Part shown: in pieces, positions 1 through 61,140 of the stretch
Layout: each line of letters starts with the position of its first letter
Position numbering within the stretch: position 1 is the stretch's first letter
DNA from: Mobula hypostoma
Taxonomy: Eukaryota
DNA length: 64,000 nucleotides
Assembly (NCBI RefSeq): GCF_963921235.1
Contig: NC_086097.1
Location: 86,616,001 to 86,680,000, forward strand
Direction: 5' to 3'
Translations under genes and position numbers: made by a program
Notes under the pieces: generated by a model
What the model was told of the DNA's origin: nothing
Databases searched by the model: none
Seen by the model: the letters and a program-made list of their open reading frames with translations, nothing else

Positions 1-2399
1 CCATTTCTTGTTTACATTTGCATACTTGCCACTCCAATTAAATATTAACCAGTTTGTAAGGTATCAGATGTTTTAAATTGAAGTTTTATAGGCAGTGAGT
101 ACTAGATATTCAGCAAAGTACTTAGACTTGCATTCAGCCAAGCAGGAACATATGAAAGAGGCTTAAAAGCAAAGGGATGTGATCATAGTGAAGTTTATGA
201 GTAGAATTCAAAGACACTCTATCAGTATAAAGTTTAAAATGCTGCTATGAACAGTCATACATTCCCTATTATTAAAACCTTTGATAGCCATTGAAAGGTT
301 GGGATAGAGATCCAGGATTGTTCACCTTCTTCCCCCAAACCCATGTTTTCCATAGTCACTCTGTAAGCAAGACTAGTCAATAAAAAATCTAATGAGGCAC
401 TTTCTGTAGTCCAAGTTACTCTTCTTAGCCTGGACCCAACTCTGGGCTAACATTCAAAATAAACTGGTTTTATTTCACTCAAAGTAATGATGTCCCAACT
501 GTGCCAGTGAAGTAAAAGCTCTTTGCATAGGAGGTCACTATCCCAATCCTGGTTATTTTTCTTCCAACTATGTCCATGGCATTCTCTTTAAAGGGGTAGC
601 TAGAACGAAGGCAATCAGATACAGTACTTGATGAATTTAGGCTAATGCACTTCATACTCAAAGTAAGGAATCAACTGAAGCAACACAAGTTCGTGCTGCA
701 AGGGGAAGCAAGCTGCTAGGTTTTTGTTCCTTGATGCTCTCATTACTGATGCTCTTTGCTTTATTTGACTTTGTTGTGATATTTCAAGAGCCATGTGGCT
801 GTCTTACAAAATTAGGAAAGTCCACTGAATGAGCTATATGTGGCATGAACAATTATCCGATAATGGAGGATGGAGTACCATAGTGAGTCAAATGACAAAC
901 AGGGATCCTGTGGACGACAAAGGGTTTAAGAGAACTACAGAATGCCTCTATGAACAGGGAAATTCTAATTCAATAGAGTTCTACTGTGAAGTGTCACAGT
1001 GCTGGGCTCAAGGATTTCACTGGACTGAAGGAAATCTGATGAGTCATGTGTGTCTGTGCAGGCGGACAGAGTGGGCTAGCACTCAGTAAGGAATGTCTCT
1101 GAAGAGTGATTGTTTAAGTTGTTTTTGAAAACTGATGGAGCAGTTGATCTGCTGAACAGAGGTGAAAAGAATGATCAAAACAAAAAAAAATTTCTTTTGA
1201 CGTACTAGTGAAATGAAAAACTGTTCTAAACTGGTACAGAATTATAAAAATATGGCAATCATATTGTGGCTTAGTCTCAAAATGCAGCATCAATAATAAC
1301 AGGTATGGATGGTTAAATTTCAGATCGGTAAACTCCAGCTGCAGTAGGTGGACCAATTGTACAACTGGTAGCAATGTACCAGTAGTACGTGTGTTTTATC
1401 AGTCTGGTACACAGCATCCAGGTCCATGTCTTCATTTGGTGATTTGCCACATTGTAATGAATGGAAAGCACCAACAAGAAGTTCCCACTGAGAGATACCT
1501 CAGGCTGTTCTTGCATATATCCAGGCAACAGATTCTGGGGACACCTAAGGGAAATACCATGCATTGACATTTGCTGTCTTGAAGAATTTGAAAGAGAAAA
1601 AGAAATAAATGCAGTTGAAGCTAATGATTAAAGTAGAAAGTTGAAACTTTCAACTTTATGAGCAGTTAAATATGAGAGTTCTGCCCACAGGACAGTGATT
1701 AGTTAGTAGTGCTAAAATCCACTAATCTGACATCCAATTGTTTGGAAATCCTAGTGGTTTGGCATCTGGTGCACTTATTAATCTGGAACGTGAGCAGCAG
1801 GTCCAGAGGGCAAGCCAGATGTACAGCTAGAGCCAGGGGTCCAAATAACGGGCTACAATGCAACTTGAATGGGTCTGGAACACAAGGGCTCAGGAACATG
1901 GGTAGATTTGCAGCTGGAAGCCTGGGTTCTGGGCACATGCATATTTTTCACTCCCCTTGAACTCATGGGGTTCACTACAAAATCTATTATGCTGCTGAGC
2001 AATATGTAAAAAAAAGGAGAAATAAAGGTGTGTTTGAGTATTAATAGGAGTGAAAAATCTACTAGTCCGGCACCACTGACAAGGGTGTTGATTATTGGAA
2101 ATCCACTGTAGTATTTTTGTCTCTGATTTAGAAAATTATAGGCAATATCTCACACTGACTTTGGTGAGATTCATGTACAAGTTCATGGCTTTGGTTGACA
2201 TTCCAATGGAACATATAAATAACATTTTGGATGAGGGCAACAAAATTTTTGCTGCACTTTTCTTGTACAGTACCAGCAAAAAATGCAATTAACTTATTGT
2301 TCAAAGTTGCTAAAACAAAACCAGTAAATCTGAAGATAGAGGAGTTTTAGAAACACAAAGGATGATTAAGCCATTGACTAAAAAAAATGAGACTAAATT

Positions 2400-6150: not shown

Positions 6151-6732
6151 TAGTTAGTGTGAGATAAATGAGAGGGGTCGCACTTTGGCAAGATGAATTA
6201 AAAAATGACTTACACAGAAAATGGTAGGGCTTTGAGTAGTGAATAGGAAAGATTTATAGACATATGGGTAAAATACAAACAAATAGGGCTTGCCACGCTG
6301 GGATGCATTGTGTTCAAGACCTGTGGTTTATACATTTCCACATTTGTTGATTAAACAAACTTAAGTGGCAATGTGGGTAATGCTGAGGATGCAATAGGTT
6401 TCAAGAGAATAAACACAAGCAGAGTGAGTGGACCACGTGAGTATACAATGTGAAAAAATCTACTTTGATTGAAAAAAGAACAAAAATACTGACTTTTTTA
6501 ATTGCAAGAGATTGGGGAATGATAATGTTCCAAAGAACGTGGGTAGCCTCACACATGTTGTATTGAAAACTAAAATGCTAGTGCACCAATTAGAAAGGGA
6601 AATGCCATTTTGGAGTTTATTGCAAAAGGATAGGGCCTTGGTGAGACATTAGTTAGAATACTGTGTGCAATTTTATTCTCCTCAGCTATAAAAATAATGC
6701 ACCTATCATAGAGGTGGATTAAAGATTCACTA

Positions 6733-8287
6733 CGTAAATACGAGGAATTCTGCAGATGCTGGAAATTCAAGCAACGCACATCAAAGTTGCTGGTGAACGC
6801 AGCAGGCCAGGCAGCATCTCTAGGAAGAGGCGCAGTTGATGTTTCGGGCCGAGACCCTTCTTCAGGACCAACTGAAGGAAGAGCTAGTAAGAGATTTGAA
6901 AGTGGGAGGGGGAGGGGGAGATCCAAAATGATAGGAGAAGACAGGAGGGGGAAGGATGGAGCCAAGAGCTGGACAGGTGATTGGCAAAAGGGATATGAGG
7001 GGATCATGGGACAGGAGGCCCAGGGAGAAGGAAAAGAGGGAGGGGGAGAAACCCAGAGGATGGGCAAGGGGTATAGTCAGAGGGACAGAGGGAGAAAAAG
7101 TAGAGAGAGAGAAAGAATGTGTGTATATAAATAAATAACTGATGGGTAACGAGGGGGAGGTGGGACATTAGCAGAAGCTAGAGAAGTCAATGTTCATGCC
7201 ATCAGGTTGGAGGCTACTCAGACGGAATATAAGGTGTTGTTCCTCCAACCTGAGTGTGGCTTCATCTTTACAGTAGAGGAGGCCGTGGATAGACATGTCA
7301 GAATGGGAATGGAATGTGGAATTAAAATGTGTGGCCACTGGGAGATCCTGCTTTCTCTGGCGGACAGAGCGTAGGTGTTCAGCAAAACGATCTCCCAGTC
7401 TGCGTTGGGTCTCGCCAATACGTAGAAGGCCACATCGGGAGCACCGGACGCAGTCCAGCCGACTCACAGGTGAAGTGTCGCCTCACCTGGAAGGACTGTC
7501 TGGGGCCCTGAATGGTGGTAAGGGAGGAAGTGTAAGGGCATGTGTAGCATTTGTTCCACTTACAAGGATAAGTGCCAGGAGGGAGATATATGTCCAACAT
7601 ATTATTCTCCGTGACTTCCGCCACCTCCAACGGGATCCCACCACTAAGCACATCTTTCCCTCCCCACCTCTCTCTGCTTTCCGTAGAGATCGCTCCCTAC
7701 GTGACTCCCTTGTCCATTCGTCCCCCCCCATCCCTCCCCACTAATCTCCCTCCTGGCACTTATCCTTGTAAGCGGAACAAGTGCTACACATGCCCTTACA
7801 CTTCCTCCCTTACCACCATTCAGGGCCCCAGACAGTCCTTCCAGGTGAGGCGACACTTCACCTGTGAGTCGGCTGGAGTGATATACTGCGTCCGGTTCTC
7901 CCGATGTGGCCATCTATATATTGGCGAGACCCGACGTAGACTGGGAGACCGCTTTGCTGAACACCTACGCTCTGTCCGCCAGAGAAAGCAGGATCTCCCA
8001 GAGGCCACACATTTTAATTCCACATCCCATTCCCATTCTGATATGTCTATCCACGGCCTCCTCTACTGTAAGGATGAAGCCACACTCAGGTAGCCTCCAA
8101 CCTGATGGCATGAACATTGACTTCTCTAACTTCCGCTAATGCCCCACCTCCCCCTCCCACTTTCAAATCTCTTACTATCTCTTCCTTCAGTTAGGCCTGA
8201 TGAAGGGTCTCGGCCTGAGACGTTGACTGTACCTCTTCCTAGAAATGCTGCCTGGCCTGCTGCATTCACCAGCAACTTTGATGTGTG
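6733..8287. mobile_element. Penelope-like element, inverted (fold-back) pair of GIY-YIG endonuclease/3' UTR copies
   Basis: Plus copy ~7591-8287 encodes PPGTYPCKRNKCYTC...VIYCVRFSRCGHLYIGETRRRLGDRFAEH. Minus copy 6733-~7590 is its inverse. Flanked by a 14 bp TSD with 2 mismatches (ttaaagattcacta 6719-6732 / ttaaagaatctcta 8288-8301). Confidence 0.9.
6833..6874 (-). ncRNA. Minimal hammerhead ribozyme motif in PLE 3' UTR (partly decayed)
   Basis: Minus strand ggtc-CTGAAGA-a-ggg-tctcgg-ccc-GAAA-c-ATC-aactg. Core boxes intact; helix I and III mismatched. Confidence 0.7.
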
Positions 8288-11086
8288 TTAAAGAATCTCT
8301 AGGTTGGTTTCTGATGTGGCAGGTCTGCTATATGAGAACTGGTTGAATGGTCTAGGCCTCTACAGAGATTGAAACAATGTTGTGACCTCATTGAAACATT
8401 GTAAGTTCTTTGTTGATCTTGACAGGGTTGTTGTAGGAGGAATGACTCTCATACTTGAGAAGAATGAGGTGACACAGTGTCAAAATACCTGGGGTAGGCT
8501 ATTTAGGAGTGAAAATAACAAGTGATTTCTTCATTCAAGAAGCAGTGAACCTTTGGAGTTCTTGAACCTGTAGGGTTGAGGAGTCTTAGGCATTAAGTTC
8601 ATAAAGAACTGAGACTGATACATTTCTAGATATTAAAGGAATTAAGTAATACGGAACATCATGCTGAAGTCGAAAAAAAGACAAGATTTTATTGAAAGGC
8701 AGAGCAGTGTTGAGAAGTCAGACAGTCTATTGCTACTCCTATTTTTGTTCATTGTTATCTCAGATAAATAAGGGAGTGAAGGGAAATCTTACCATGATGA
8801 AAAGTCAAGAATCTCTATAATCCTATAAAATAACCGTCAATAAGGTATTTTATTCTCTGTGAGAGAAACTTTCAGAATGTTTCTAGCCAACTTTCCTTTC
8901 TGCTAAACAACTATTCCAAAATATCTTACAATTTCTATTTTATGGATTCCTGTTTAAACAATGTTTTCTTACGAATTTTCTCACTTTTTTCCTGAGTCTG
9001 TTGATTTAGGTTAAGCTGAGTAATTATGGCTCCAGTGAATCTTGTTCAAAAATAAATTTCCATTTGTGATCCTAGATAGTCGATGGCTGGATATTTATTC
9101 TTACCTTAGTATCTGGCATTTCACTCAGGAACAAATACAAAAAATTGAGCTGAAATGAGAACCATTAGTTCATCTGATCAAGTCTTACAAACTACCTCTC
9201 AGATCCCTTACAATAACAATGTAAACATGATTGGTCTTCACCACCATTCAAGCTGCAAAGAGAGTCTGAAAGTAAATCCAGTACCTTTTTTTGACAATAT
9301 TCCTGAGGTCAGAACTACAGGATTTTTAATTATAAAGCTGCCACCTTAGGAGTTAAACAAATTAATATGTAAACTCCACCAAAAAAAAAGATTTGATTCT
9401 AATTTCAGTTCTCTGAGCTTCACATCAGATCTGTAGGTAACCACCGCTCGCAATGTCACTTTTTATTTTTGATTGTTGGAGCAATACAAAGGAAACTCGT
9501 TTGTAAAGCTTTCAATGCCAGTGTGGAATGCCACTCCTGCCTTTCTTAAGGATCTCAGTATAGCCACCAGTTGCTGATGCCTGCAGGTGAGAAAAACCTT
9601 CTAGTAAATGAGGTGTTGTTACAAAGTCTGCATTTTCCTACTCTATTACTAATAATGAATTTCTTAGTGTTCAGCGTTATTAGTATCCGTGCCTATGTTC
9701 TAAAGAGAAGACTGAATGATTGCTAGCTCTTTGGAAGAGTGTATGTAATTGAACACACATTATCTAGGCACCAGGAGAAACCACAGTACTACAGCTGCCA
9801 TCTCATGGCCTACATTGAATATTGCATCGTGGAATCTGTCTTGAGTTTGCTCACAGTAACTTCTAAATTGTGTTTCAGAAATGGAATGATTGAAGAACTT
9901 GAATTCATATTGTCAGCTGAACCAAATGGCATTTCATGAATTTACACCGCCTTTCTAGTCAATCTGATGTTTTACTGAGGGTATACTACCTTTAAATTTT
10001 CCTCAGATTCTTTGCTGATTCTAATCTCATATTCATCATGCACTTTTAGCTTGAGTTTGGGCAGGAGAACCACTACTAATTCTTCACAGAGAATTGTAAA
10101 TTGAAGCCTTCAACATATGTAAAATGGGTAAAATGACATCTCCCTCATTCAATTACTGAAAAAAAAACTAAGCCTATTGACTATCTATCTCTGCTCAGCT
10201 CACTATAGCATCCTCACTGACAGCTGATTCTCAGTAGAGAATGGAAATTTAAATTAAAATTCAGTTTCAGGATGTTGGATTTCCCCAAGAGCATTTCATA
10301 AAATGAAGTCTGATCAATCTATGTCATTTTTGCACCATCAAGGTCCAGATAAGAGGGTGAATAAGGTCTTAGGAGATATCCAAGAGAGCCTGGGAGGCGT
10401 CTACTGCATATTCATATAATTTATCAAGATAAATCTGTTACAAAATTAGATAACCTGCTTATTCAAGCAAAGCACAGCTACAAAATTCCTGATGCAGGGC
10501 CTCAACCCAAAATGCCGACACATTTCCTTTACTTCCACAGATGCTGCTGACCAGCTGAGTACTAACAGCAGCTTATTTTTTGCATCGGACAATAATCACC
10601 TGCGACAGAAAACAGTGGGCAGCCAGGTGATGTCATATGTCAGTAGATTGTGTTGAGGAACAAAGTGGAGGAAACACTGCACTTCTAATGGGGTGTGACT
10701 CCAAACTTGGGAAACATGACTTCAGAGGATCTCGTCAAGTGCTGCTAAATCACTTTGGAGAAGTTTTTGCACTGGTCAGCAAGATACCAAGAAAGGCAAG
10801 GCTTCATAACCAAGTCTTACAATGAAATGCCTCTGCAAATGAAAGTAATTTGTTTCCTGAACTTTCTTTTACTATCGCCTGTCTTTCCAAATTGATAACC
10901 AGTGAATAAGATCAGCATTGTTTACGATAGAATTTCTTAAATCTCTCTAATTTAATTTAGAAATTCTTCCATTAGTCAAAAGCTTTCCTTAGTCTGCACA
11001 ATGCAAAATATAATCATGTAATTCAAAGAAGTGTCCAGAAGATAATAGCTGGAAATTATAAAAGCTTATTCACATAATTATTAAGA

Positions 11087-15939: not shown

Positions 15940-18900
15940 TTGGATACTGTTGGGGGGGTGGGGTGACAACCTAGCAGGGGAAGTCGCAGTGACCGGTCTT
16001 GGGCACAGAGTCTGGCACTGTGGCTCAGAAGGGAAGGGGATAGAAGAAGACTGCCATAGTGATAGGGGATTCCATAGTTAGATCAGTAGACAAGAGATTC
16101 TGTGGATGCGATATAGACATCTGGATGGTATGTTACCTCCCAGGTGCCGGAGTCAGTGATATCTCGGATCAGGTCCATGACATTCTAAAGAGGGAGGGTG
16201 AGCAGCCAGAAGTTTTGGTACTTACTAGCACTAATGACATAGGCACGAAAAGGGAGGAGGTCCTGAAGAAAAAACTTAGGGAGTTTGGTAGAAAGCTGAA
16301 AAGCAGGACCTCCAGCATAGTAATCTCTGGATTGCTGCTTGTGCTACACAGCAGTGAGGGTAAAAATAAGCTGACTTAACAGAAGAATGTTTGGCTGAGG
16401 AACTGGTGCATGGGGCAGGGTTTTCAGATTTCTGGATCATTGAGATCTCTTCTGGGGATGACTTGTACAAAAGGGATGAGTTACACCTGAACCTGAGGGG
16501 GTACAATATCATTGCGGAGAGATACGCTGGAATGATTGGAGAGAGTTTAAACTAATTTGGCAGGGGAATGGGAAACAGTGATAGGGCTGAGGATGGGGCA
16601 GTTGTCAAACAAGCAGAGGTAGTGTGTAGTGAGACTGTCAGGAAGGACAGACAGATGACAGGACAAAATTGCAGTCAGTGGAATGAGATGCAGTGTAACA
16701 GGGACAAAACCCAAAAGGGTGACGAATGTAGGCCTGAAAGTGCTATATTTGAATGGAGGCAGTACTGTATATGGAATAAGCTAGATGATCTTGTAGTGAA
16801 GATAAGAGATTGGCAGGAATGACATTGTGGGCATCACTGAGTCATGGTTGAAAGAAGATTACAGTTGGGAACATAACATTGTATCAAAAGGACAGGTGGT
16901 GGGGTGGCTCTGCTGGTAAAAAATGAAATCAAATCCTTAAAAAGAGGTGATAAAGGATCGGAAGATATAGAATCATTGTGTGTAGAGTTAAGGAACTGCA
17001 AAAGTAAAAAAGAACCTGATGGGAGTTATATACAGGGCTCCGAACAGTAGCTGGGATGGAGGCTACAAATTACAGTGGGAGATAGAAAATACATGTCAAA
17101 AGGGTAATGTTACAATAGATATGGGGGATTTCGTTATGCAGGCAGATTGGGAAAAGCAGGTCGTTGCTCATTTTGGACACCAAGAGAAGGAACTTGTAGA
17201 ACGCCAACAAGAGAGCTTTTTAGACCAACTCATGGTTGAGCCCACTAGAGGATCAGCAATTCTGAATTGGGTGTTGTGTAATGAACCAGATTTGATTACT
17301 GAGCTTAAGGTAAAGAATTCCTTTGGAGACAGTGATCATATTATAATAGGATTCACCCTGCAATTTGAGAGGGAGAAGCAAAAGTCAAATGTATCAGTAT
17401 TACAGTGGAAAAAGAAGAAGTATTCTAAAGGAAGGATGATACAGACGTGGCTGACAAAGGAATTCACAACCAACATAAAAGCAAAAGAGAGGGCATAAAA
17501 TACAGCAAAAATTAGTGGGAAGTTAGAGGATTGGGAAGCTTTTAAAAGCCAATAGAAGGCAACTAAAAACGCCATAAGGAGGGATAAGATGAATATGAAG
17601 GCAGGTTGGCCAATAATATCAGAGAGGATAGCAAGCATTTTTTTCAGATAAAAACAGAGTGAAGGAAAGGTGAGAGTAGATAACGGATTGCTGTAAAATT
17701 ATTATGGAGAGGTAGTAGTGAGATACAAGGAAATAGTGGATGAACTGATTAAGTATTTTGCATCAGTCTTCATTATGGAAGACACTAGCGGTATGTCAGA
17801 AGCTTGAGAATGTTGGAGTAGAAGTGAGGGCAGTTGCTATTACTAGGGAGATGGTGCAAAAGTCTGAAGGTTGATAAGTCAACTGGACCAGACGGACTAC
17901 ACCCAAGGTTCTGAAAGAGGTAGCTGAAGAGATGGTGGAGGTATTAGTAATACTCTATCAAGAATCAGTAGATTCTGGCCTGGTTCCAGAGGACTGGAAA
18001 ATTTAAAATGTCAATCCACTCTTCGAGAAGGGAGGGAGGCAGAAGAAAGGAAATGGCCAGTTAGCCTGATGGTTGGCAAAGGCAAATGGTTGAGAAGATG
18101 TTAGAGTCAGTCGTTAAGGATGAGGTTTTGGGGTTCTTAGAAGCACATGATAAAATAGGCCAAAGGGAAAATCTTGCCTGCCGAATCTGTTGGAACTCTT
18201 TGTGGCAATAACAAGCAGGATAGACAAGGAGAATTGGTGGATGTTGTGTACTTGGATTTCCAGAAGACCTTTGACAAGGTGCCACACATGAGGCTGCTTA
18301 GCAATAAAAGAGTTCACTTTATTTCAGGAAAGGTACTAGCTTGGATAGAGCATTGGCTCATCAGTAAGAGACTAAGAGTGGGAATAAAGGGAGCCCATTC
18401 TGATTGGCTGCCGTTGACTCCCAGTGTTCTGCAGGGTTCGGTGTTGGAACCGCTTCTTTTTACGTTGTATATCAATTGATTTGAATTACAGAATCGACGG
18501 CTTTAAGGCAAGTTTGTGGACAACACAAAAACAGGTAGAGGAGAAGGTAGGGTTGAGGAAGCAAGGAGGCTGCAGAAAGACTTAAACAGATTAGGAGAAT
18601 GGGCAAAAAAGTGGCAGACGGAATAGTGTTGGGAAGTGCATAGCTATTCACTTTAGAAGGAATAAAAGCATAGACTATTTTCTAAACAGAGAGAAAATTT
18701 AAAAAATCCAAGATGCAAAGGGACTTCGGAGTCCTCATGCAGGATGCCCTAAAGATTAACTTGCAGGTTGAGTCATTAGTGAGGAAGGCAAATGCAATGT
18801 TAACATTCTCTTCGAGAGGACTAGAAGTTAACAATGATGTTATACTGAAGCTTTATAAGGCGCTGGTGAGTCCTCACTTAGAGCAGTGTGAGCAGTTTTG

Positions 18901-19433
18901 GGCCCCTTATCTAAGAAAGGATGAGCTGACATTGGAGAGGGTTCAAAATAGGTTTACAAATATGATTCTGGGAATTAACGTCTTATCATATGATTGTTTG
19001 ATGGCTCTGGGCTTGTACCCATTGGAAGTTAGAAGCATGGGGCGGGGGGGGAGTCTCACTGAAGCCTATCAAATGTTCAAAGGCCTAGATAGAATGGATG
19101 TGGAGAGGATGTTTCCTTTAGTGGAGGAGTCTAGGACCAGACAGCACAACTTCAGAATAGAGGGACGTACTTTTAGAACAGAGATGAGGAGGGATTTCTT
19201 CAACCAAAGTGTGGTGACTCTGTGGAATTTGTTGCCAGAGCTGGCTGTGGAGACCAGGTCATTGGGTGTATTTAAGGTGGAAGTTGATAGATTCTTGATA
19301 AGTCAGGGTGTGAAAGGTTTCGGGGAGCAGGTAGGAGAATGGGGCTGAGAAGGAAATGAATCACTCATGATCACATGACGAAGCAGACTCTTTGGGACAA
19401 ATGGCCTGATTTTGCTCCTATGTCTTATGGTCT
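15940..19433 (+). mobile_element. Near full-length decayed CR1 LINE
   Basis: ORF1 SGNH-esterase motifs (IGDSIVR, LPGA, TNDIG, LHLN); ORF2 APE endonuclease (GVIYRAP, MGDF, SDH) and RT (YLDFQKTFDKVPH, QGSVLEPLLF); 3' tail cctatgtcttatggtct. Confidence 0.92.
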
Positions 19434-21739: not shown

Positions 21740-23190
21740 GCTTGCTCACCTCTCTCTCCCCTTTCTCGATCTCTCTATCTCTACCTCTGAAGACAGACTG
21801 TTTATTGATATCTTTTCTTAACCGACTGACTCTCACAGCTATCTTGACTATACCTCTTTCCACCCTGTTACTTGTAAAAATGCCTTTTCCTTTTCTCAGT
21901 TCCTCCATCTCCATTGCATCTGTCCTCAGGATGAGGCATTCCTTTCCACAACATCTGAGGTGTTCTCCTTCTTCAGAGAACAGTGTTTCCCTTCCTCTAC
22001 CATTGATGCTGCCCTCATCCGCATCTCCTCTATTTCCCAGATATCCACTCTGACCCTATCTTCCTGCCACCTTAACTGGATAAAGTTCCTCTTGTCATTT
22101 TCTACCACCCAATGAGTCTCCACATCCAGCACGTCATTCTTCCCCACTTCCACAGAGTTGTCGCCCTCCCCTTCTTTTTCATTCCCCTTTCTGGTTCTTT
22201 TCTTACCCATTCTCCTCTTCACCTTCCTGTGGTGTTCCTTTTCATCCATGGTCCACAGTCCTTTCTTATCAGATTCCTTCTTCTTCAGCCCTTTACTTTT
22301 CCACCTATCACCTCCCAGCTCCTCATTTCATTTCCCCCTTCCCCCATTCACCTACTTTCCCCTTCACCTGGCTTTATTTATCAAGCTCTGTCTGCCAGAG
22401 AAAGCAGGATCTCCCAGTGGCCACACATTTTATTTCCACATCCCATTCCCATTCTGATATGTCCATCCATGGCCTCCTCTACTGTAAAGATGAAGCCACA
22501 CTCAGGTTGGAGGAACACCACCTCTTATTCCATCTGGGTAGCCTCCAACCTGATGGCATGATCATTGACTTCTCTAACTTCCGTTAATGCCCCTCCTCCC
22601 CTTCTTACCCCAACCCTTATTTATTTATTATTTTCCCCCTTTCTCTCTCTTTTTTGCTCCCTCTGTCCCTCTCACTATATCTTCCTCTGGTGCTCCCCTC
22701 CCCCTTTCTCTCTCCCTGGGCCTCCCATCCCATGATCCTCTCCCTTCTCCAGCTTTGTATCCCTTTTGCCAACCAACTTTCCAGCTCTTAGCTCCATCCT
22801 CCCCCTGCTGTCTTCTCCTACCATTTCAGATCTCCCCCTCCCCCTCCCACTTTCAAATCTCTTACAATCTCTTCTTTCATTTAGTCCTGACAAAGGGTCT
22901 CAGCCCGAAACGTCAACTGTACCTCTTCCTATAGATGCTGCCTGGCCTGCTGCGTTCCACCAGCATTTTGTGTGTGTGTGTTGCTTTACTTATCACCTTC
23001 CATCTTGTACTCCTTCCCCTCCCCCTCTTCTTATTCTGGCTTCTTTCCCCTTCCTTTCCAGTCCCAATGAAGGGTCTTGGCCCAAAACATCGACTGCATT
23101 TTCCTCTCAATAAGTACTGCCTGACCTATGTTCCTCCAGCATATTGTGTGTGTTAGTATGGATTTCCAGCATCTGCAGAATATCTTGTGC
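21740..23190 (+). mobile_element. Older Penelope-like element with a younger PLE 3' fragment nested at ~22384-22982
   Basis: RT C-terminal remnant (TDSHSYLDYTS..CKNA.PFSQFL). Nested copy carries the endonuclease C-terminus plus 3' UTR, flanked by a 13 bp TSD (gctttatttatca 22371-22383 / gctttacttatca 22983-22995). Confidence 0.85.
22883..22919 (+). ncRNA. Hammerhead ribozyme motif with G8>A core change
   Basis: agtc-CTGACAA-a-ggg-tctcag-ccc-GAAA-c-GTC-aactg. Confidence 0.6.
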
Positions 23191-24380: not shown

Positions 24381-24976
24381 TCACACAAAATGCTGGAGGA
24401 ATTCAGCAAAGGCGTGGCATGGTAGTGTCACGGCTAGCTGAACAGTTTACAATACCAGCAACTCAGGTTCAATTCCCTTTGCTGTCTGTACATTCTCCCC
24501 GTGACCACCTGGATTTCCTCTAGGTACTCTAGTTTCCTCCCATATTCGAAAGATGTATGTTAGTTCATTGTGGGCGTGATATGTTGCCGCTGGAAGCATG
24601 GTAACACGTGTGCGATGCCCCAAGCACATCCTCGGACTGTGTTGGTTGTTGACACAAAATGACATATTTCACTGAATGTTTCGATGCAGATGTGTGACAA
24701 ATAAAACTAATCGTAATCTTATCTCTGGGGGGGGGATAAACAATTGTCAATAAGAACAAGAACAATGGCTGTATTTTCACACAGCAACTTATTAACTTAA
24801 ATAAGAACAATTCTTGCTCTGACTTTTGCCCCTTTCCTTTTAGTCCTGATGAAGGGTCTCAGCCCAAAATGTTGACTGTTTATTGTCCTCCATAAATGCT
24901 GCCTAGCTTGATGATATCCTCCTGCATTCTGTGAACTTTGCTCAAGATTTCCAGGCTGCAGAACTTTTTGTGTTTA
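24381..24976. mobile_element. Fold-back PLE-tail element with nested SINE (~24410-24720)
   Basis: Inverted PLE tail on the left; forward hammerhead-bearing tail on the right (agtcCTGATGAagggtctcagcccAAAA, from 24842); 11 bp TSD tcatttaaaac (24370-24380 / 24977-24987). Confidence 0.7.
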
Positions 24977-28289: not shown

Positions 28290-28556
28290 CACAGACACGA
28301 GGAAATCTGCAGATGCTGGAAATTCAAGCAACACACATAAAAACGCTGGTGAACGCAGCAGGTCAGGCAGCATCTATAGGAAGAGGATCTAAGAGCTGGA
28401 GTAGATCCACCCCTCCCCCTCCCACTTTCAAATCTCTTACTATCTCTTCTTTTAGTTAGTCCTGCCGAAGGGCCCTGGCCCGAAACATCGATTGTACCTC
28501 TTCCTATAGATGCTGCCTGACTGCTGCGTTCACCAGCATTTTTTGTGTGTGTTGCT
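28290..28556. mobile_element. Miniature fold-back PLE-tail insertion with decayed hammerhead (28458-28494)
   Basis: Inverted tail ~28290-28386 pairs with forward tail ~28497-28556; 11 bp TSD tatatttaaaa (28279-28289 / 28557-28567). Confidence 0.85.
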
Positions 28557-31764: not shown

Positions 31765-33430
31765 CACAAGATGTTCTTCAGATGCTGGAAATTTAGAGCA
31801 ATGAACAGAAAATACTGGAGGAACTCAGCAGGTTAGGCAATATCTAAAGAGGGGAATAAACAGTCGAGATTTCCGGTTGAGGCCCTTCATCACGACTGGA
31901 AAGTAAGAGGGAGGAAGCCAGAATAAGAAAGTTGGGGGAGAGGAAGGAGTAGAAGCTTGATGTGATAGTGAAACTAGCTGGGGAGAGCGAAGGTAGCTAG
32001 GTTGGTGGGGGAGGAAGGATTAAGTGAAAAACTGGGATGTAACGGACCTAAAGGCTGAAGAAGAGGAGAATGGACAATGGAAAAAAGGGAAGGAGGAGAG
32101 GCACTAGAGAGAGCTGATGAGGAGAAGAGAAGGGAGAAGACGGGAGCAGGAAAGGAGAATCAGAGAAGGGGAAGCGGGGTATATTACTGGAACTTAGAGA
32201 AATTGATGTTCATGCCATCAGTTTGAAGGCTACCCAGATGGAATATGAGGTGTTGCTCCTTCAACCTGACAGTGGGCTCATTGTGACAATAGAGGAGGCC
32301 ATGTACTGACATTTCAGTATGGGTATAGGAAGTAGAATTTAGGACCATAAGACATTAGAGCAAAATTAGGCTGTTCAACCCATCAAGTCTTCTTTGCTAT
32401 TTCGTCATGACCGACTTACCATCCCTCTCAATCCCATTCTCCTGCTTTACCCATGTAACCTTTGATGCCCTGACTAATCAAGAACCTATCAATTTCTGCT
32501 TTAAATATTCACAATGATATGGCCGCCACAGCTGTTTGTGGCAATGAATTCCACTGATTCACCACCCCTGGCAAATGAAATTCCTCCTCATCTCTATTCT
32601 AAGTGGATGCCTTCTATTCTGAGGCTGTACCCCTTGGACTTAGGCTCCCCCACTGTAGGAAATATCCTGTCCACATCCACTCTATCTAGGCCTTTCAATA
32701 TTTGATAGATTTCAATGAGATTTCTCTTCATTCTTCTAAACTCCAAAGAGTTGTCAAACACTCCCCATATGTTAATCCTTTCATTCCTGGAATCATTCTT
32801 GTGACCCTCCTCCCGATCCTCTCCAATGCCAGGAAAGGGGCCCTAAACTGCTCACAGTACACCAAATGCTATCTGACTAATGCCTTATAAAGCTTCAGCA
32901 TTACATCATTTGTAACCCGTAAAATGGGTGGTTATCAGGAAAGCCCACCTTTTGTAGCGGATAGAGTGAAGGTGCTCGGCGAAGTGGTCTCTCAATCTAT
33001 GTTGGGCCTCCCCGCTGTAGAGGAGGCCGCACCAGGAGTACCTGATACAGTAAATGACACCAACAGACTCACCTGTGAAGTGTGTCTTCACCTGGAAGGA
33101 CTGTTTGCGGTGAAGGAGGAGATGTAGGTGCAGGTGTAGCACTTGTCCCACTAGCAGGCATAAGTGCGAGGAGGGAGATCAGTGGGGAGGGACAAGTGGA
33201 AAAGGGATTCATGTAGAAAGCGATCCCTGTGGAGAGTTGGGGAGGGGGGGAGGAAGGAAAAGACGTGTTTAGTGGTAGGATCCAGTTGAAGATGGCAGAA
33301 ATGACAGAGAATGAGGTGCTAGATTTGGAGGTTTGTGGAATGGTAGGTAGGGACAAGGGGTATTTGACTTGTGGCGGTGGAGAGATGGGGTGAGGGTAGA
33401 TATCTGGGAAGTGGAGGAGGTATGGGTGAG
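31765..33430 (-). mobile_element. Older Penelope-like element with a nested CR1 3' fragment (~32341-32908, minus)
   Basis: Minus-strand GIY-YIG remnant (GVIYCIRYSWCGLLYSGEAQHRLRDHFAEH); 3' UTR with decayed hammerhead at 31861-31898. Confidence 0.85.
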
Positions 33431-36269: not shown

Positions 36270-36950
36270 ATGGAACGTATTTTGCACAGAAACAGGCCTT
36301 TAGCCATAATGTTATTCCAAAGTAATTAAATTGATCATGCTTAATTAAACTAAACACTTCTGCCTGCCTATTGTCTACGTTCCACCATTCTCCATATATT
36401 CGTGTGCCAATCTCAGAATGTCTTAAATATCTCTATCTGTCCCACCACATGACGAAGGGTCTCGGCCCAAAACGTCGACTGTACCTCTTCCAATAGATGC
36501 TGCCTGGCCTGCTGTGTTCCACCAGCATTTTGTGTGTGTTCCCTGTATCATTAGACATTTTGGCTCTGGGGAAAAAAGAGTAGATAGTTGGCATCTTTCT
36601 ACGCCTCTAATAATTTTATAGATTTTTGTAAGGTCTCCCTGTGGCCTCTGCCACTCCAGAATAAAACAACCTCGATTTGTACAACCTATCCATATAGCAC
36701 ATACCCTCTAATCCAGGCAAAATTGTAGTAAACCTTTTCTGCACCCTCTGTGTATTCTCTACATCACTCCTGAAGTGTGTCAACCAGAAATGAATGCAAT
36801 ACTCTAGATGTGGCCTAACTAGAGTTTTATAAAGCTACAGCATTAATTCCTGCTCCATTGACTGTGAACTCAGTGCCTTGATTAATAAAGACAAACATAT
36901 ATGAAATGAGGCACCCTGTCGACTTGTGCAGCCACCTTCAGGGAGCTTCG
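36270..36950 (-). mobile_element. CR1 3' fragment with a ~90 bp PLE tail insertion (36450-36540, +) starting inside the hammerhead core
   Basis: tgacgaagggtctcggcccaaaacgtcgactg...tgtgtgtt is embedded in reverse-complement CR1 3' sequence. Confidence 0.7.
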
Positions 36951-37293: not shown

Positions 37294-39090
37294 AGGATTA
37301 GGAAGCCTTCAAAAACCAACAGAAGGCAACTAAAAGCCATAGGGAGATAAAAGATGTAAACTAACCAATAATATAAAAGAGGATACCAAAAGCTTTTTCA
37401 GATATATGAAGAATAAAAGGAGAGAGTGGATATTGGGCCACTGGAAAATGACGCTAGAGTGGTAGTAATGGGGAACAAATGATAGATTAATTGATTAAGT
37501 ATTTTGTATCTGTCTTCACTGTGGAAGACACTAGCAGTATGCCAGAAATTTGAGTGTGTCAGAGGCGTAATTGCTATTGCAAAGGAGAAGGTGCTTAGGA
37601 AGCTGAAAGGTCTGAAGGTAAATAAGTCACTTGGACCAAATGGATTCCATGGTTCTGAAAGAGGTAGCTGAAGAGATTCTGGAGGCTTTAGTCATGATCT
37701 TTTACAAATCACTGAATTCTGGAATGGTTTTGGACGACTGGAAAATTGTAAATGTTATTTCACTCTTTAAGAAGGGAGGGAGACAGAAGAAAGGAAATTA
37801 CAGGCCAGTTAGCCTGAATTCATGGTTGGGAAGATGCTGGAATCCATTATTAAAGATGAGGTTTTGGGGTATATGGGGGTGCATGATAAAGTAGGCCAAA
37901 TTCAGTATGGTTTTCTTAAGGGGAAGTCTTGCCTAATAAGTCTGTTGGAATTCTTTGAGGAAAGAAGAGGCAGGATAGACAAAGGAATGTTTGTGGATGT
38001 TGTTTACATCAATTTTCATAAGGCCTTTGATAAAGTCCTGCATATGAGATTGCTTAACAAGGTAACAGTCTATGGTATTGCAGGAAAGATACTAACATGA
38101 ATAGAAGATTTGCTGATTGGCAGGAGGCAAAGAGTGGGAATAAAGGGGCCTTTTTTGGTTGGCTGCCAGTGAGTAGTGGTTTTCGAGAGGGGTCAGTGAT
38201 GGGACTGCTACTTTTTGCATTATATGTCAATAATTTGGAGGTTGAAGTTGATAGCTTTGTGGACAAGTTTGTGGATGATTTGAAGATGGGTGGAGGGGCA
38301 ATTGGTGTTGAGGTAGCAAGGAGTCTGCAGAAGGACTTGGGCAGATTGGGAAAATGGACAAAGTGGCAGGTGGAATATTGTATAGGGATGTGAATGGTCA
38401 TGCATTTTGGTAGAAGGAATAAAGCGTGGATTATTTTCTAAGCATGGAACAAATTCAGAAATTGGAGGTGCAGAGGGCCCTGGGAGTTCTCATGCAGGAT
38501 TCCTTAAAGATTAACTTGCAGGTTGAGTTGTGGTAAGGAAGGCAAATGCAATGTTGGTATTCATTTTGAGATGTTCTGGCGTTGGGCAGAGTCCTGAGGA
38601 GGTTGACAAGAATGATTCCACAAAGGAAAGGGTTAAAAAAAAAACGAAGAACATTTGATGCCTCTGGGCTTGTACTCACTGGAGTTTAGAAGAATTAGGG
38701 GATGGAGAATCTCATTGCAACCTACTGAATATTGAAAGGCCTAGATAGAGTGGATGTGGAGCAGATGTTTCCTATAGTGGAGGAGTCTAGGGCCGGGGGA
38801 CACAGCCTCAGAATAGAGGGACATCCATTTAGAAGAGTGATTCAGAGGAATTTCTTTAGCCAGAGGGTGGTGGGTCTGTGAAATTCATTGCCATAGATGT
38901 CTGTGGAGGCTCAGTAATTGGGTATATTTAAAGCAAAGGTTGACATGTTTTTGATTAGTTAAGCATCAAAGATTACAAGGAGAAGGCAGGAGAATGGGGT
39001 TGAGAGGGACAGTAAAGCAGCCATGATGGAATTGCAGAGCAAACTCAAAGGGCCGGATAGCCTGACTCTGCACTCATGTTTTATGGTCTT
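37294..39090 (+). mobile_element. 5'-truncated CR1 LINE (same subfamily as 15940-19433)
   Basis: LFKKGGRQKKGNYRPVSL, GKSCLISLLEFFE, FDKV, KFVDD; tail ttatggtctt. Confidence 0.9.
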
Positions 39091-47320: not shown

Positions 47321-48920
47321 CAGGTTTCCCCTGCCATCTGAAGGTACAGCACTCCTATGAAAATGGTTCGTAAGCCGGAATGTCGTAAAGCGAAGAAGCA
47401 ATTACCATTTATTTATATGGGAAAATTTTGTGAGTGTTCGCAGACCCAAAAATAACCTGCCAAATCATGCCAAATAACACATAAAACCTAAAGTAACAGT
47501 AACATATAGTAAAAGCGGGAATGATATGATAAATATACAGCCTATATAAAGTAGAAATACTTTTCCAACAATCATTGCCGGCACTGTTCTCCGAAGCGAA
47601 AATCTCACACAAGCACTCTCGGCAGAAAATCTCACGCACGCGCTGTTGGCAAAAACACTCTCTCCAGTAACCTTCAACCTATGAAGCTGCCAAATCGTAC
47701 CAAATGTAAAAATACACAGCCTATATAAAGTAGAAATCACGTATGTACAGTGTAGTATCAGTTACTGGAATTGGGAAGACAGGGCAGAGCACACTGATGA
47801 TGGTGTGTTAGACTGAGTCGTGGCAGGTTTGGTGGTGCAGTGGCCCCACCCTCCAGGCCGCCAACCGATACATTGCCGCGAAGCATGCAGTGGTAGCCGG
47901 AAGGCACACAGCACATCTTTAAGAAAAAAGCCGAAATAAACATGCTAATTAATTAGGTGCTGCCCGACACGTAATTGTCTGCCCAGGTCAGTGCCGATTG
48001 CATCACCTCTGATCTGGGTCGACATTTACGTGTCGGGCAGCACCTAATTAATTAGCTTGTTTATTTGGGCTTTTTTCTTAAAGATGTGCTGGTTGCGTCC
48101 CGGCTACCGCTGTATTCTCCGCGAATCGGTATCTGTCCACGGCCCGGGGGTTGGGGTGGTGGGACACTGGGGTGTCATCTCTTCGTCTGTTTCCATTATG
48201 ATCAGGCGACTCATCTTCTCCTATGACTGCCCACCTTGATGTCGAAGGTTGAGGTTCGTCATCTGCTGTGGCTGATGTGGAAGGCTTGCTTGACTGCTGA
48301 GCCTCGCACATTTTTCTATCATACAGTTCTTTGTAAGGACTCAAACCATCCTGCAAATATCCCCTAAACCTACATACCCTTTCAAAATTAAAGTCGTACT
48401 TTATCATTGCAGCGAAAATCTCACGCAGTTGCTTCACGTTCATTTCGCTACTGAATTCGTTTTCGATTGTTATCCTTTCCTCTTCCAATTACATCGGCTC
48501 TTCATCTATCAGTTCTTGGTCATGGGATGCCAAAACTTTTCAACATCATCTTCGTCAGCTTCCACAAGCCAAACTCACGTTGTCCTTACTTCATTCACCA
48601 CGATCGAAACGCTTAATTATGTCTAGTTTTACGCTAAGTGTAACACCCTTACAAGCTCTTTCAGGCTTTTCCAATATCTCAGAACTCATCTTGCAAACGG
48701 CTACTCACAGGCATGTGTTAAAGCAATGCCGTTCTGAATCCGGGGGAGAGCGGCTGCTCGGGGCGCGCGCTGCCTTTTATCGTGCGCTGATTTTTATCGC
48801 GCACTGATTTTTTTCGTAACAGTGAAAACACCTTCTGAAAGCGAAAACAGGGTACTAATGTAGGTCTTTCGTAACAGTGAGGTTTCTTAAAGCGAACGTT
48901 CGAAAAGCGGAGGACACTTC
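47321..48920 (-). mobile_element. Internally deleted Tigger/pogo transposon
   Basis: TA TSDs; imperfect TIRs (caggtttcccc / ggaggacacttc). Minus strand: N-terminal HTH remnant from ATG 48689 (VTLSVKLDIIKRFDRGE) joined at ~48575 to C-terminal EDDVE..LASHDQEL..YKELYDRK; DDE domain missing. Confidence 0.88.
47844..48156. repeat. Long inverted repeat (~145 bp arms, ~17 nt loop)
   Basis: cagcacatctttaagaaaaaagccgaaataaacatgctaattaattaggtgctgcccgacacgtaa is mirrored at ~48026-48092 with 2-3 mismatches; outer arms are more diverged. Confidence 0.9.
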
Positions 48921-50020: not shown

Positions 50021-50777
50021 TTGGGAGCAAGAACAGGAAGGCAGATTATTATCTGAAAGGTGTGGAGTTAGGTAAGGGAGAAATACAAAGAGATCTAGGA
50101 GTACTTGTTCATCAGTCTCTGAAGGTGAATGAGCAAGTGAAGAAGGCTAATGGAATGTTGGCCTTTATTACAAAGGGAATTGAGTACAAGAGCAAGGAAA
50201 TCCTTTTGCATTTGTACAGGGCCCTGGTGAGATCACACCTAGAGTATTGTCTACAGTTTTGGTCTCCAGGGTTAAGGAAGGACATCCTGGCTATGGAGGA
50301 GGTGCAGCGTAGGTTCACTAGGTTAATTCCTGGGATGTCCGGACTGTCTTACACAGAGAGGTTAGAGAGACTGGGCTTGTACATGCCGGAATTAAGGAGA
50401 TTGAGGGGGGATCTGATTGAGACATATAAGATTATTAAGGGATTGGACAAGATAGAGGCAGGAAATATGTTCCAGATGCTGGGAGAGTCCAGTACCAGAG
50501 GGCATGGTTTAAGAATAAGGGGTAGGTCATTTAGGACAGAGTTGAGGAGGAACTTCTTCTCCCAGAGAGTTGTGGAGTTGTGGAACACGCTGCCTCAGAA
50601 GGCAGTGGAGGCCAATTCTCTGGATGCTTTCAAGAAGGAGCTAGATAGTAGGGGAATCAAGGGTTATGGGGACAAGGCAGGAACCGGGTATTGATAGTAG
50701 ATGATCAGCCATGATCTCAGAATGGCGGTGCAGGCTCGATGGGCCGAATGGTCTACTTCTGTACCTATTGTCTATTG
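50021..50777 (+). mobile_element. Young 5'-truncated CR1 nested in an old CR1 (~49800-51960)
   Basis: Open 210 aa ORF2 C-terminus (50062-50694); (CTATTGT)n tail; 9 bp TSD tctatcact (50012-50020 / 50778-50786). Confidence 0.9.
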
Positions 50778-56560: not shown

Positions 56561-57668
56561 TTTTCTATTGCAGCTGTTTCTTGCGTTCAAAAGCCAGGAG
56601 CAAACAAATAGGATTTAGGATTGATGTTGTTCTATTATGAAGTAAATGAAAACAAAAAAATGTATTTTAAAAGTGAAAGTTGGAGTACGTTCCATGCTCT
56701 TCCAAGGGAATGAGCTTCTATATACAAAATTACTTCTTCAGTACAAGAAAGGTAGTTAAATAATTACGATTCATATTCCATTAAAACTCAGTTAAGGCAG
56801 CTTAGCCTTTTGTCTTTTACAGCAAAATAATGCATATAACGTTGAAGCTTATTGTAATAATTGACTTATTCTTGATTGCCTTTGCAAACATCATAATACC
56901 TGAAGAATTAAAAATATTTGTGCTGGAGTATTTGGATTTTTAATCTTGCAACCTGGGTGCAAATGCCAGCAGCTGAAAAATTTTACCTTCTCAATTTCTA
57001 CTTTGCATGCACTTAGTTAGACACAGTGACCCAAAGCCCTGTTCCTCCCTAATATCAGCTTTTTCATTCTGCATTGCTGCTTGTTATTAAGACATGGTGA
57101 AAACTACAATTATTCTACTCATTTAGGGGAAAAACATGCTGAAACTGTGATATGAATTTTAGAAACACTCAGGGAATCAGACAACATTAATGGAGAAAAG
57201 TTAGTGAAGTTCTTCCATTTTGATCAAACATCTTCAAGCCAAAATCTATTTTTTTTCTTTGTGGGTACTCCTTGACTCTATCAATTGAAATTTTGTCACT
57301 TAATTGATGGAAAAGAAATCAATTTTGTCAGCTGTATGTGATGCATTAAAATTACCTTACTTTCTGAGGTGAGCATCACACTTTTAATATTAAAATAGAA
57401 TATGCACTAATGGAAGGATTAATCCACTAACTGCACAACAGTTGGTCAAATGTTAGGGTGGTTACATTTGTCAAACAAGTAATTTAGTACAAAATTAATT
57501 GGTGTTTGAAATAATATGCTAGTAATTCACAAATAATGCAGATGTGTGAAAGGTAAGCTTTGACTAATTGGATAAAGTACTTTGATTAATGAAGAAATGT
57601 AAGCATTAATTGAAGGGATGTAGGAAGGCAGTATTAATTGAGACACAAGCAGAGAGGAGTGGCAAATG

Positions 57669-58342
57669 AACGCAGCAGACCAGACCGCATCTCTAGGAAG
57701 AGGTACAGTCGACGTTTCAGGCTGAGACCCTTCGTCAGGATTAACTGAAGGAAGAGTTAGTAAGAGATTTGAAAGTGGGAGGGGGAGGGAGAGATCCAAA
57801 ATGATAGGAGAAGACAGGAGGGGGAGGGATGGAGCCAAGAGCTGGACAGGTGATTGGCAAAGGGGATATGAGAGGATCATGGGACAGGAGGTCCGGGGAG
57901 AAAGACGGGGGGGGGGGACCCAGAGGATGGGCAAGGGGTATAGTCAGAGGGACAGAGGGAGAAAAAGGAGAGTGAGAGAAAGAATGTGTGTATAAAAATA
58001 AATAACGGATGGGGTACGAGGGGGAGGTGAGGTATTAGCGGAAGTTAGAGAAATCGATGTTCATGCCATCAGGTTGGAGGCTACCCAGACGGAATATAAG
58101 GTGTTGTTCCTTGAACCTGAGTGTGGCTTCATCTTTACAGTAGAGGAGGCCGTGGATAGACATGTCAGAATGGGAATGGGATGTGGAATTAAAATGTGTG
58201 GCCACTGGGAGATCCTGCTTTCTCTGGCGGACAGAACGTCGACTGTACCTCTTCCTAGAGATGCTGCCTGGCCTGCTTTGTTCACCAGCAACTTTGATGT
58301 GTGTTGCTTGAATTTCCAGCATCTGCAGAATTCCTGTTGTTT
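57669..58342. mobile_element. Young fold-back Penelope-like insertion
   Basis: Minus copy (endonuclease C-terminus plus 3' UTR, 57669-58235) followed by a plus-strand tail (58235-58342); perfect 14 bp TSD aggagtggcaaatg (57655-57668 / 58343-58356). Confidence 0.92.
57706..57747 (-). ncRNA. Best-preserved minimal hammerhead ribozyme motif
   Basis: Minus strand aatc-CTGACGA-agg-gtctcag-cct-GAA-ACGT-C|gactg: complete core, palindromic ACGU helix III, GUC triplet. Confidence 0.78.
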
Positions 58343-58932
58343 AGGAGTGGCAAATGGTGGTTTTCCAGACCAGTGATTAGTGTACTGTGGTAATTCCCAC
58401 CCCCCCCCCACCCCCGGGATCTTTGTTGGGAGCACAGCTATGATTTTGTATGTGTTTAAAATCTGAGTTTGGATATTAAAAAAAAATTTTGAAGTTCATA
58501 AGTTCAAATAATGAGAACAATAGAAACAGGCTTGAGAGAAAGAAGTGGATAAGCTGCTGTATTGTCTGACTCATTGTGAATGACATTTACTCTGGGGTGT
58601 TTGAGGTGAATTTTTTTATTGGTGAAAAGAGAGCAGCAGCAAATAAATTAATACATAAAAAAATTTAAGTGTTTCTATAAGATGGAAGGTGTTCACATCT
58701 TTTTTTTAAAAGAGCCAGCCCAAATATTAAAGGCTGCTCTTTTTACAAGAGTTTATCAGATCATTGAGTTTGTAAATGGAGCATGTGATACGAATATAAT
58801 TAAGATTAATGACATTTTTATAAAACACTGGTTAGATTCCAGTCTGAATATTCTGTTTAATTCTGGGTACCGTATTTACAATATATGTTACAAAATGCTG
58901 GAAGAATTCAGCAAGTTGAGCAGTATCGATGG

Positions 58933-59240
58933 ACTCGTTATACTCTATACTTTATACTTTATTATTGCCAAACAATTGTTACTAGAACGTACAATCATCA
59001 CAGCGATATTTGATTCTGCGCTTCCCGCTCCCTGGATTACAAATCGATAGTAAATATTAAAAGTTTAAATGATAAATCATAAATAGAAAAATGGAAAGTG
59101 AGGTAGTGCAAAAAAACCGAGAGGCAGGTCTGGATATTTGGAGGGTACGGCCCAGATCCGGGTCAGGATCCGTTCAGCAGTCTTATCACAGTTGGAAAGA
59201 AGCTGTTCCCAAATCTGGCCGTACGAGTCTTCAAGCTCCT
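58933..59240 (-). mobile_element. Rex1/L2-type LINE 3' fragment inside a decayed fold-back PLE-tail element (~58890-59330)
   Basis: Reverse complement reads ..RFGNSFFPTVIRLLN then a 3' UTR with a short repeat tail; PLE tail halves on both sides. Confidence 0.6.
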
Positions 59241-61020
59241 CTGATGCAGGGTCTAGACTTGAAACATTAACTTACATCTTTTATGCAGAGATGTTGCTTG
59301 GCCCACTTAATTTTCCCAGGATTTTCAGTCTCTTGTGTTCAAAGATTTCAGGGTTCAGAAGAAATGCAAATGATGAAAAGTTTGGTTATTGCAGAGACTG
59401 GATAAACTGGGGTAGGTCTCCTTTGAGCGGACAAGGCTAAGGAAAGAAATAATAAAAATACTGAAACTAGGAAGCAAATAATGGATATGTAAAGAGAAAC
59501 TGTTTTCCATAGCAGAGGGACAATAATCAGAGTTAACATATAGATCAGGTATCATCTATAGAAGGAGGAAGTTAATGTTAAAGGTGGTTGACTTTGCATC
59601 AGAGCAAGCCAGTTCAGATACAAGGACTGATTACCTGAAATATTGTTATTTATTGTTGGAGCTCTCAGGCAAATGGGCAGAGGAAAGGTGACCTGATTTT
59701 ATGTTGACCTCTGTTGAAACAGTGAAGTGGACCAAAGACAAGATTATAGTGGGAAAGAGAAATTATACTGATGAACATTGCGAAAAGACTATAGGGGTAT
59801 TATATGAAGCTATCATCCTGTCTGTGTTGGATGTCTCTAGCGTAGTGAAGATTACTACATTGTAAGCATAGAATGCCTTACAATGGAAGAAATACAAATG
59901 AACTGCTGGTTTGTCATAGACAGAATGCTTAGGTTGCTGGATGGTGAGAAATGGCAAAAGGACTGGATTTGAATCTCTTGCAGCACCATGTTGGAGCTAG
60001 GAGAGCTCCTGCCTCAAATCTGTAGCAATTGAAGTTCAGTCCTGAATCTACCAATCCAGTCAAGTGTGAGGAATGAACAGTTTGACAAAATGTGCTGTAA
60101 AATCATAAGCTTGAACAAAACATTGAGGTCTTCAAATTAAAATAGCTTCTTTTTATTGTTTTACCGGGAAAAATAACTTCTGATAGTCTTGCAAGAATTT
60201 TCCTGGAAAGTAACTGATTCACATGTGTATATTCTGAGAGAAATTTAGGATTAATATTTCTTGCAACTTTTCTGCACATTGCCACCATTTTATAACAGTG
60301 ACAGGAAAAAAAATTGCACTTGGGCAACAGGTGGCTGAGTGTATCTCATGACTATGGGCACTGCTGTGAGTACAGATGACACCAAATAAACATGGATACT
60401 TAAGCTACTTTGTTACAAGAATCCATCTGTATCATTGTAATACCTTAAATATAAAATATTTTCTTAAAATTTCACATCTTTAACTCTTGGTTTCAGCTGT
60501 TTTCTTTTCCCACCCATTTCTGTATTGTGTGCTGGTCATATTCCTATGAGATAAAACACTGATCTTTGATTACTTATTGTGGTATTTTCAACTTGATTAT
60601 ATAACATTTTTGTATAGAAAGAACTGCCAAACATAAGTTGTCCAGTCTATTTTTCTGATGGAAATGGAGACTGTTCTGTCATTGAAATTTGTACTCTAAG
60701 AATGTAACTGACCTCCCAAGGCTTACATTAGACTTATGATGTAAATATTGGAAGTGGAAACATCTTTGCATTATCCTTCCTGAAGTTTTGTCAATATATT
60801 TAAATTGAATGCCAGATCTAACTGAATTTCTAATCAAACATTGAGTATTTAATCATAGTAGGGTGTATAATCTTAGGAAGAGTTTTGGAAATTGAATGGT
60901 ATTAGCTTGGGAGGCAAGAGAAAAAGAATATTTTAAGGGAATAATAAATACCATATTGTCACAACTTGCTTGAAATAAAAAAATAAAACTGCTGATACTA
61001 GAAATCTAAAATAACAACAG

Positions 61021-61140
61021 TAAGTGCTGGAAATGTTCAACAGGTCAGGCCACATCTGTGGGAAGAGAAACACGGGTAACATTTCAGCTGTTTTTCTCTT
61101 CCCATAGATGTGGCCTGACCTGATTATTTCCAGCAACTTA
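61021..61140. repeat. PLE-tail-derived hairpin (~50 bp arms)
   Basis: caggtcaggccacatctgtgggaagagaaa pairs with tttctcttcccatagatgtggcctgacctg; outer gctggaaat/atttccagc also pair. Confidence 0.8.

Follow-up and report, generated by a model that had tools for sequence, protein, structure and literature searches.

A damaged copy of a known minimal hammerhead motif in the end repeat of an abundant Penelope-like retrotransposon of the ray Mobula hypostoma

The stretch of DNA analysed here, termed the window, covers 64,000 nucleotides of Mobula hypostoma (NC_086097.1, positions 86,616,001 to 86,680,000); its GC content is 40%, and CpG occurs at 0.30 of expectation. An insertion of a Penelope-like element (PLE) occupies approximately positions 57,667-58,342 between 14-bp target-site duplications (Table 1). 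Its main arm, on the minus strand, is 5′-truncated and contains the end of a GIY-YIG frame (stop at 58037-58035), the 3′ UTR, a hammerhead motif and a 44-nt tail, and is joined head-to-head, with a short overlap, to an inverted arm at 58235-58342. This truncated, head-to-head form of insertion has been described for PLEs (bioRxiv 2021.04.23.441226). The motif, read from 57742 to 57706 with a predicted cut after 57711, is a damaged copy of a known minimal hammerhead lying in the end repeat of the retrotransposon: helix II is intact, and a G>A change leaves one A·C mismatch that breaks helix I. Another Penelope insertion of the head-to-head kind, at 6732-8289, carries two motifs that are both broken, together with linker and EN fragments. 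The window also contains dispersed LINE-like fragments approximately 19.75 kb apart (17700-19300 and 37470-38960; 50406-50661), an inverted repeat of 155 bp with a 3-nt spacer and 81% complementarity (47844-48156), and a short hairpin (61047-61118) whose weak, sub-threshold matches to miRNA families are probably due to chance.

Table 1. Coordinates of the flagged insertion and of the hammerhead motif copies in the window
Feature	Position	Strand	Remarks
Main arm, 5′-truncated Penelope-like copy	57667..58242	-	92% identical to ORF-intact copy L166
Inverted arm, tail copy	58235..58342	+	5 nt before predicted cut to 102 nt after
14-bp target-site duplication, left copy	57655..57668		
14-bp target-site duplication, right copy	58343..58356		
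Minimal type I hammerhead, flagged copy	57706..57742	-	core CUGACGA-A / GAAA-CG-UC intact
Motif copy, helix III broken	6834..6869	-	one arm of head-to-head element ~6732-8289
Motif copy, GAAA broken	8193..8228	+	other arm of head-to-head element ~6732-8289
Degenerate motif copy, 9 mismatches	10485..10520	+	absent from first list; Hamming scan
Motif copy, G8 lost	22883..22918	+	
Motif copy, older subfamily, flanks different, core broken	23060..23095	+	
Motif copy, older subfamily, G12 lost	24842..24877	+	
Motif copy, A6 lost and helix III broken	28458..28493	+	
Motif copy, older subfamily, core broken	31862..31897	-	
5′-truncated copy, start within core, G12 lost	36445..36480	+	
Very degenerate motif copy, 11 mismatches	59237..59272	+	absent from first list; Hamming scan

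The original prediction listed nine copies of the motif in the window, and all nine are present to within a few bases. With up to 8 mismatches allowed, a 36-nt Hamming scan found nine copies, and with up to 11 it found 11, the two additional ones starting at 10485 and 59237 on the plus strand, and none in the reversed window used as a control. The number of copies able to work had been overstated: among the 11, the core is intact in the flagged copy alone, and in none are core and helices both intact. Most genomic copies, the flagged one included, are predicted to be inactive passengers.

The minimal type I architecture itself stands, with the core CUGANGA / GAAA / NUH present in 45,139 exact copies genome-wide. 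PLE minimal hammerheads are defined by an unpaired base between positions 9 and 10.1 and by a loop-less palindrome at 15.2-16.2 (PMC4209133); here these are an extra A and ACGU, respectively. The proposed 4 bp of helix I are extendable to 5 bp via a U·G or C-G outer pair, and the proposed 3 bp of helix II to 4 bp around a CUCG loop. Both helices are able to pair in the family, with the single helix I mismatch in the flagged copy. At 10.1-11.1 the pair is G-C in 6,478 exact copies and G·U in 38,661. This G·U pair was considered as a novelty and rejected, being present in several published rows (PMC4209133 supplement).

The Penelope-like identity of the host also stands, since the motif lies in the pseudo-LTRs (PLTRs) of elements with an RT/GIY-YIG ORF. 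Of 20 long copies fetched and picked for spanning the ORF start, four have an open frame of 1,013-1,016 aa running to a normal stop, and in L166, L167 and L177 an open ORF is placed between two motifs 3.5 kb apart, one in each PLTR. Both motifs are fully intact in these three copies, so that young copies do carry the core. The single ORF (1,013 aa) has its start 166 nt after that of the core, which places it approximately 135 nt downstream of the cut, and encodes RT followed by GIY-YIG. The Pfam matches (RVT_1, E 1.1e-4; GIY-YIG, E 1.9e-3) are both below the gathering cut-offs, and the DKG and YIDD motifs are present. A C-x4-C-x2-C linker at approximately residues 877-885 of the L166 ORF fits the CX2-5CxxC linker between RT and EN that characterizes the Neptune clade and is also common to Nematis. 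The host thus appears to be a young, Neptune-like Penelope family, with a linker that would suit either Neptune or Nematis. Partial tandems, an inverted 5′-truncated partner and an optional tail of 30-40 bp, which are features of EN+ PLEs (bioRxiv 2021.04.23.441226), are all found in the ray family, and two loci (L161 and L162) have tandem units with three motifs. In one full-length-like copy (L041:6066-6069), 62 nt that its sister copies have close to the ORF start are missing.

The very dense seeding claimed for this genome was borne out. In the 3.48-Gb assembly, exact 34-mers number 45,139, namely 38,661 with CCU and 6,478 with CCC at the end of helix II, and reversed 34-mers none. An unbiased sample of 40 evenly placed 10-kb pieces (400 kb) contained 40 motifs at ≤10 mismatches and none in the control; the core is intact in 11 of the 40, and core and helices in five. 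Extrapolation from this sample gives approximately 350,000 relics and 43,000 intact copies genome-wide, the latter in agreement with the exact count. Such a scale, with a relic approximately every 10 kb and an intact motif every 77 kb, is unusual; the 45,139 exact copies may be set beside approximately 9,000 motifs in Xenopus and 4,000 in coelacanth, which were counted by a different, descriptor-based method (PMC4209133). The dominant genomic form of helix II is therefore CCU and not the CCC of the original consensus. In a tree of 121 pLTR segments, a sample biased by the searches that collected it, position 11.1 is T in 99, C in 20 and A in 2, and CCU marks a short-branch, young clade; the flagged main arm is placed at the base of an older clade (23 tips, 17 with C and 6 with T). 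CCU is therefore a fixed subfamily change that goes beyond post-insertion CpG decay alone; many of the remaining differences do lie at CpG columns.

The motif is also shared beyond the young copies. An older subfamily has a 37-nt motif block in common with the young one, and its immediate flanks are different; the borders of this block are marked by loose ends at 2333 in three of four sequencing runs (contigs) and at 2369 in all four. A search pattern that excluded the main helix II gave 73 matches, against 6 in the control, mostly from three other families. Across 30 loci of these families, pairs 2-6 of helix II can form in 128 of 150 cells, compared with 53, 67 and 82 of 150 when helix II is slid, and the helix I positions, which lay outside the search pattern, are paired in 23, 27, 21, 21 and 16 of 30. 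Copies within a family are related, and these counts therefore represent few independent events. Three unrelated families of this genome keep the core with helices that differ in sequence and are still paired. tblastn with the main ORF gave no hit under 60% identity at the loci of the other families, and Pfam no match to a fragment of family E; their putative PLE link relies on GIY-YIG-like text read by eye.

Several of these loci deserve mention on their own. Two further hammerhead families have a 6-bp helix II (L212-L214, L216, L217 and others; L211, L218, L219, L235, L239 and L240), the second with GIY-YIG-like text upstream. A separate, older Penelope-like family is represented by L215, L224, L225, L227, L231-L233, L237 (~1490-1550) and L271-L280. 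In this fluke-like family, the hammerhead and its flanks are nearly letter-identical to the two rows of the liver fluke Clonorchis sinensis (PMC4209133 supplement). Forty scored copies of it, 81-85% identical, are spread over many chromosome-size contigs and preceded by a GIY-YIG-like frame; a protein search returned a single match without a name, and a literature search on this family found no paper. Fluke-fish horizontal transfer is a possible reading of the resemblance.

Whether the motif could be a chance sequence or an ordinary repeat merely resembling a hammerhead can be judged from these data. The Rfam scan found no hammerhead family at E≤5, and folding z-scores are only -0.7 to -1.2, as such an explanation would have it. 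It is effectively refuted by the exact fit to the published minimal hammerhead consensus and position, by the paired helices of different sequence in other families, and by reversed controls with only 0-6 matches.

Insertion ends do not mark the cut. Among 143 3′ ends of young copies, taken from non-random loci with the 30 loci of the cut-region end listing excluded, 53 are at +60..69 and 61 at +95..109 past the cut, i.e., approximately 65 or 103 nt beyond it, and the templates were therefore continuous across it. At the 5′ side, 164 ends are exactly at the cut, compared with 67 at a control position that lies two bases further downstream. Among 100 of the cut-position rows, at least 37 look by eye like microhomology joints or short deletions. 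A separate set of 100 rows from the region around the cut includes approximately 10 perfect fold-backs centred on GTC|GAC. Such fold-backs fit either a cut template or annealing of the 6-bp palindrome, which leaves room for a minor cut-derived class; with the excess of 5′ ends at the cut, they could mean that some templates are cut. As a major class, cut-site-defined 5′ ends were rejected; none of the 33 ORF-start-spanning rows begins at the cut.

Most 5′ ends in this region lie elsewhere. The 12 positions at the 5′ edge of helix I hold 3,611 ends, whereas the adjoining upstream window holds 828 and the 16 positions around the cut hold 589. Once corrected for the occurrence of the three search anchors (28, 17 and 18 of 30 young copies), the excess at the edge is approximately 2.6- to 4-fold per window. 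Of 30 inspected insertions at this edge, 23 start at -33..-30, 16 have an inverted partner and, in a simple check, six have a duplication of at least 7 bases. The edge also reads as a YYANWYY initiator. For full-length copies, however, a simple transcription start as the explanation is weakened by the finding that only one of the 33 rows spanning the ORF start begins at -31. A splice acceptor (CUNAC branch-like sequence, pyrimidine tract and CAG before helix I) was also considered and is unsupported: the upstream sequences are diverse with no shared exon, and 5′ ends show no pile-up in the branch-point window. In the four sequencing runs, which consist of contigs, no readable ends or splice joints were seen. 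Separately, mini-insertions of approximately 100-135 bp, comprising one whole motif and a tail, were found at L242, L246, L247, L251, L252, L255 and L256, several with clear target-site duplications.

Cleavage followed by religation could generate a circular unit RNA that serves as the real template in a rolling-circle process (proposed in PMC4209133), and the ribozyme would then be essential even though the ends ignore the cut. Partial and full tandems are indeed common among copies spanning the ORF start, whose 5′ boundaries are scattered, approximately 17 of the 33 rows start upstream of the motif (-52 to -1027), the three-motif units exist, and the motif is kept across subfamilies. However, read-through of a tandem locus yields the same products, and ribozyme-dead RNA of an anole element inserted normally in vitro (PMC11167929). 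The circular template is accordingly held to be rather unlikely, although the likeliest of the alternatives to the reading preferred below.

Nearest-neighbour folding, in models that ignore core tertiary contacts, bears on how the motif may act. In the active dimer, a nested fold, helix III results from pairing of ACGU in one copy with ACGU in the other, and helix I likewise joins the two copies. Its energies are -12.5 and -17.9 kcal/mol, compared with -31.3 and -35.3 kcal/mol for the alternative duplex, and in the minimum fold of the monomer ACGU is paired with the core. A modelled active fold that is not the minimum agrees with weak, assisted cleavage and proves nothing. For this class the published view is that activity would require two paired copies, and such a view fits the loop-less ACGU helix III. 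The unfavoured active fold, the G·U in place of G-C at 10.1-11.1 in the young, dominant clade, and insertion ends that ignore the cut would suit a motif that in this lineage is catalytically vestigial and has been retained close to the RT start sites for another role, as a signal for protein binding, promoter function or structure. We regard this as improbable: every core letter is kept in young copies and in three unrelated families, and the G·U is also found in several published rows (PMC4209133 supplement).

On the reading that we prefer, and consider probable, a Neptune-like Penelope retrotransposon that has been massively amplified carries the minimal type I hammerhead in its pseudo-LTR, and this hammerhead likely cleaves weakly, only as an ACGU-paired dimer and probably with the help of protein. 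The dimer would arise within a tandem or full-unit transcript, between the two motifs that lie 3.5 kb apart, and each core would cut the GUC of its partner. Reverse transcription would then start approximately 65 or 103 nt downstream of the cut, on RNA that is continuous there, either uncut or religated. With such a start the motif would be inherited by every new copy, and its density would therefore reflect retrotransposition and not selection on each copy.

The folding models, together with the accumulation of 5′ ends at the edge of helix I, also raise the idea of a position-gated switch, in which RNA starting at this 5′ edge could form helix I, whereas in read-through RNA a hairpin with the pyrimidine tract upstream would trap the core. 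In all four copies folded, upstream pyrimidines are predicted to sequester the core, and the mean pairing of helix I does not exceed 0.06 when 60 nt of upstream sequence are included, compared with 0.66-0.97 in RNAs running from the helix I edge to 10 nt past the cut; with longer tails, the pairing in edge-starting RNAs varies from 0.01 to 0.95. If this doubtful idea were true, the 3′ copy of the motif, ahead of the RT start sites, would be protected and the 5′ copy cut.

Both parts of the preferred reading, the dimer and the assistance by protein, have precedents. Exactly this motif was defined for metazoan PLEs by Cervera and De la Pena in 2014, with approximately 4,000 and 9,000 examples in coelacanth and Xenopus, respectively, and a Schistosoma example with no cleavage as a monomer and low cleavage as a dimer or trimer (PMC4209133); the dimer view was repeated later (PMC6765202). 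The ray motif resembles that class in its type I topology, CUGANGA with one unpaired base, G at 10.1, GAAA, palindromic CG and UC, in a short helix I with a pyrimidine-rich 5′ flank and a location in both PLTRs approximately 3 kb apart, and in mostly solo, truncated copies with opposite-strand pairs; it differs in its short helix II of 3-4 bp (PMC4209133). The closest published rows among those compared are Acropora Neptune and Crassostrea, with an identical GUC/GAC helix I, and no cartilaginous fish is among the rows examined of that supplement (PMC4209133 supplement). In Poseidon PAc of Anolis carolinensis, cleavage by the hammerhead is protein-assisted, insertion in vitro proceeds without it, and RNA-seq read ends do not mark the motif (Frangieh et al., 2024; PMC11167929). 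PAc and the ray family share a hammerhead in the pLTR, an apparently uncut template and two preferred 3′ ends approximately 35-40 nt apart downstream of the cut, which in PAc correspond to two internal RT starts. In contrast, the ORF of PAc starts inside stem II and not approximately 135 nt downstream of the cut, and the ray protein has a Cys linker and is Neptune-like (PMC11167929). Non-LTR retrozymes, including those of one chondrichthyan genome, have a type I hammerhead derived from PLE pLTRs (bioRxiv 10.64898/2026.07.22.740005). Tiny non-coding copies of approximately 100-135 nt are also present in the ray genome, but retrozymes are tandem arrays (bioRxiv 10.64898/2026.07.22.740005), whereas the ray family has a coding element that is inserted at dispersed sites, either solo or head-to-head, and no tandem arrays of short hammerhead monomers were found among the window copies.

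The novelty of the motif had been overstated in the original prediction, as this kind is already described in PLEs. It is well supported that the motif belongs to this class, which is described in most PLEs, and the ray family is notable for its abundance; a literature search found no paper on this ray family, and the supplementary tables of earlier surveys may list the lineage. The genomic record argues against the cut defining the ends of the element. As the family is young, includes copies with an intact ORF and has left insertions that can be dated in the tens of thousands, the in vivo role of the PLE hammerhead becomes testable in this ray.
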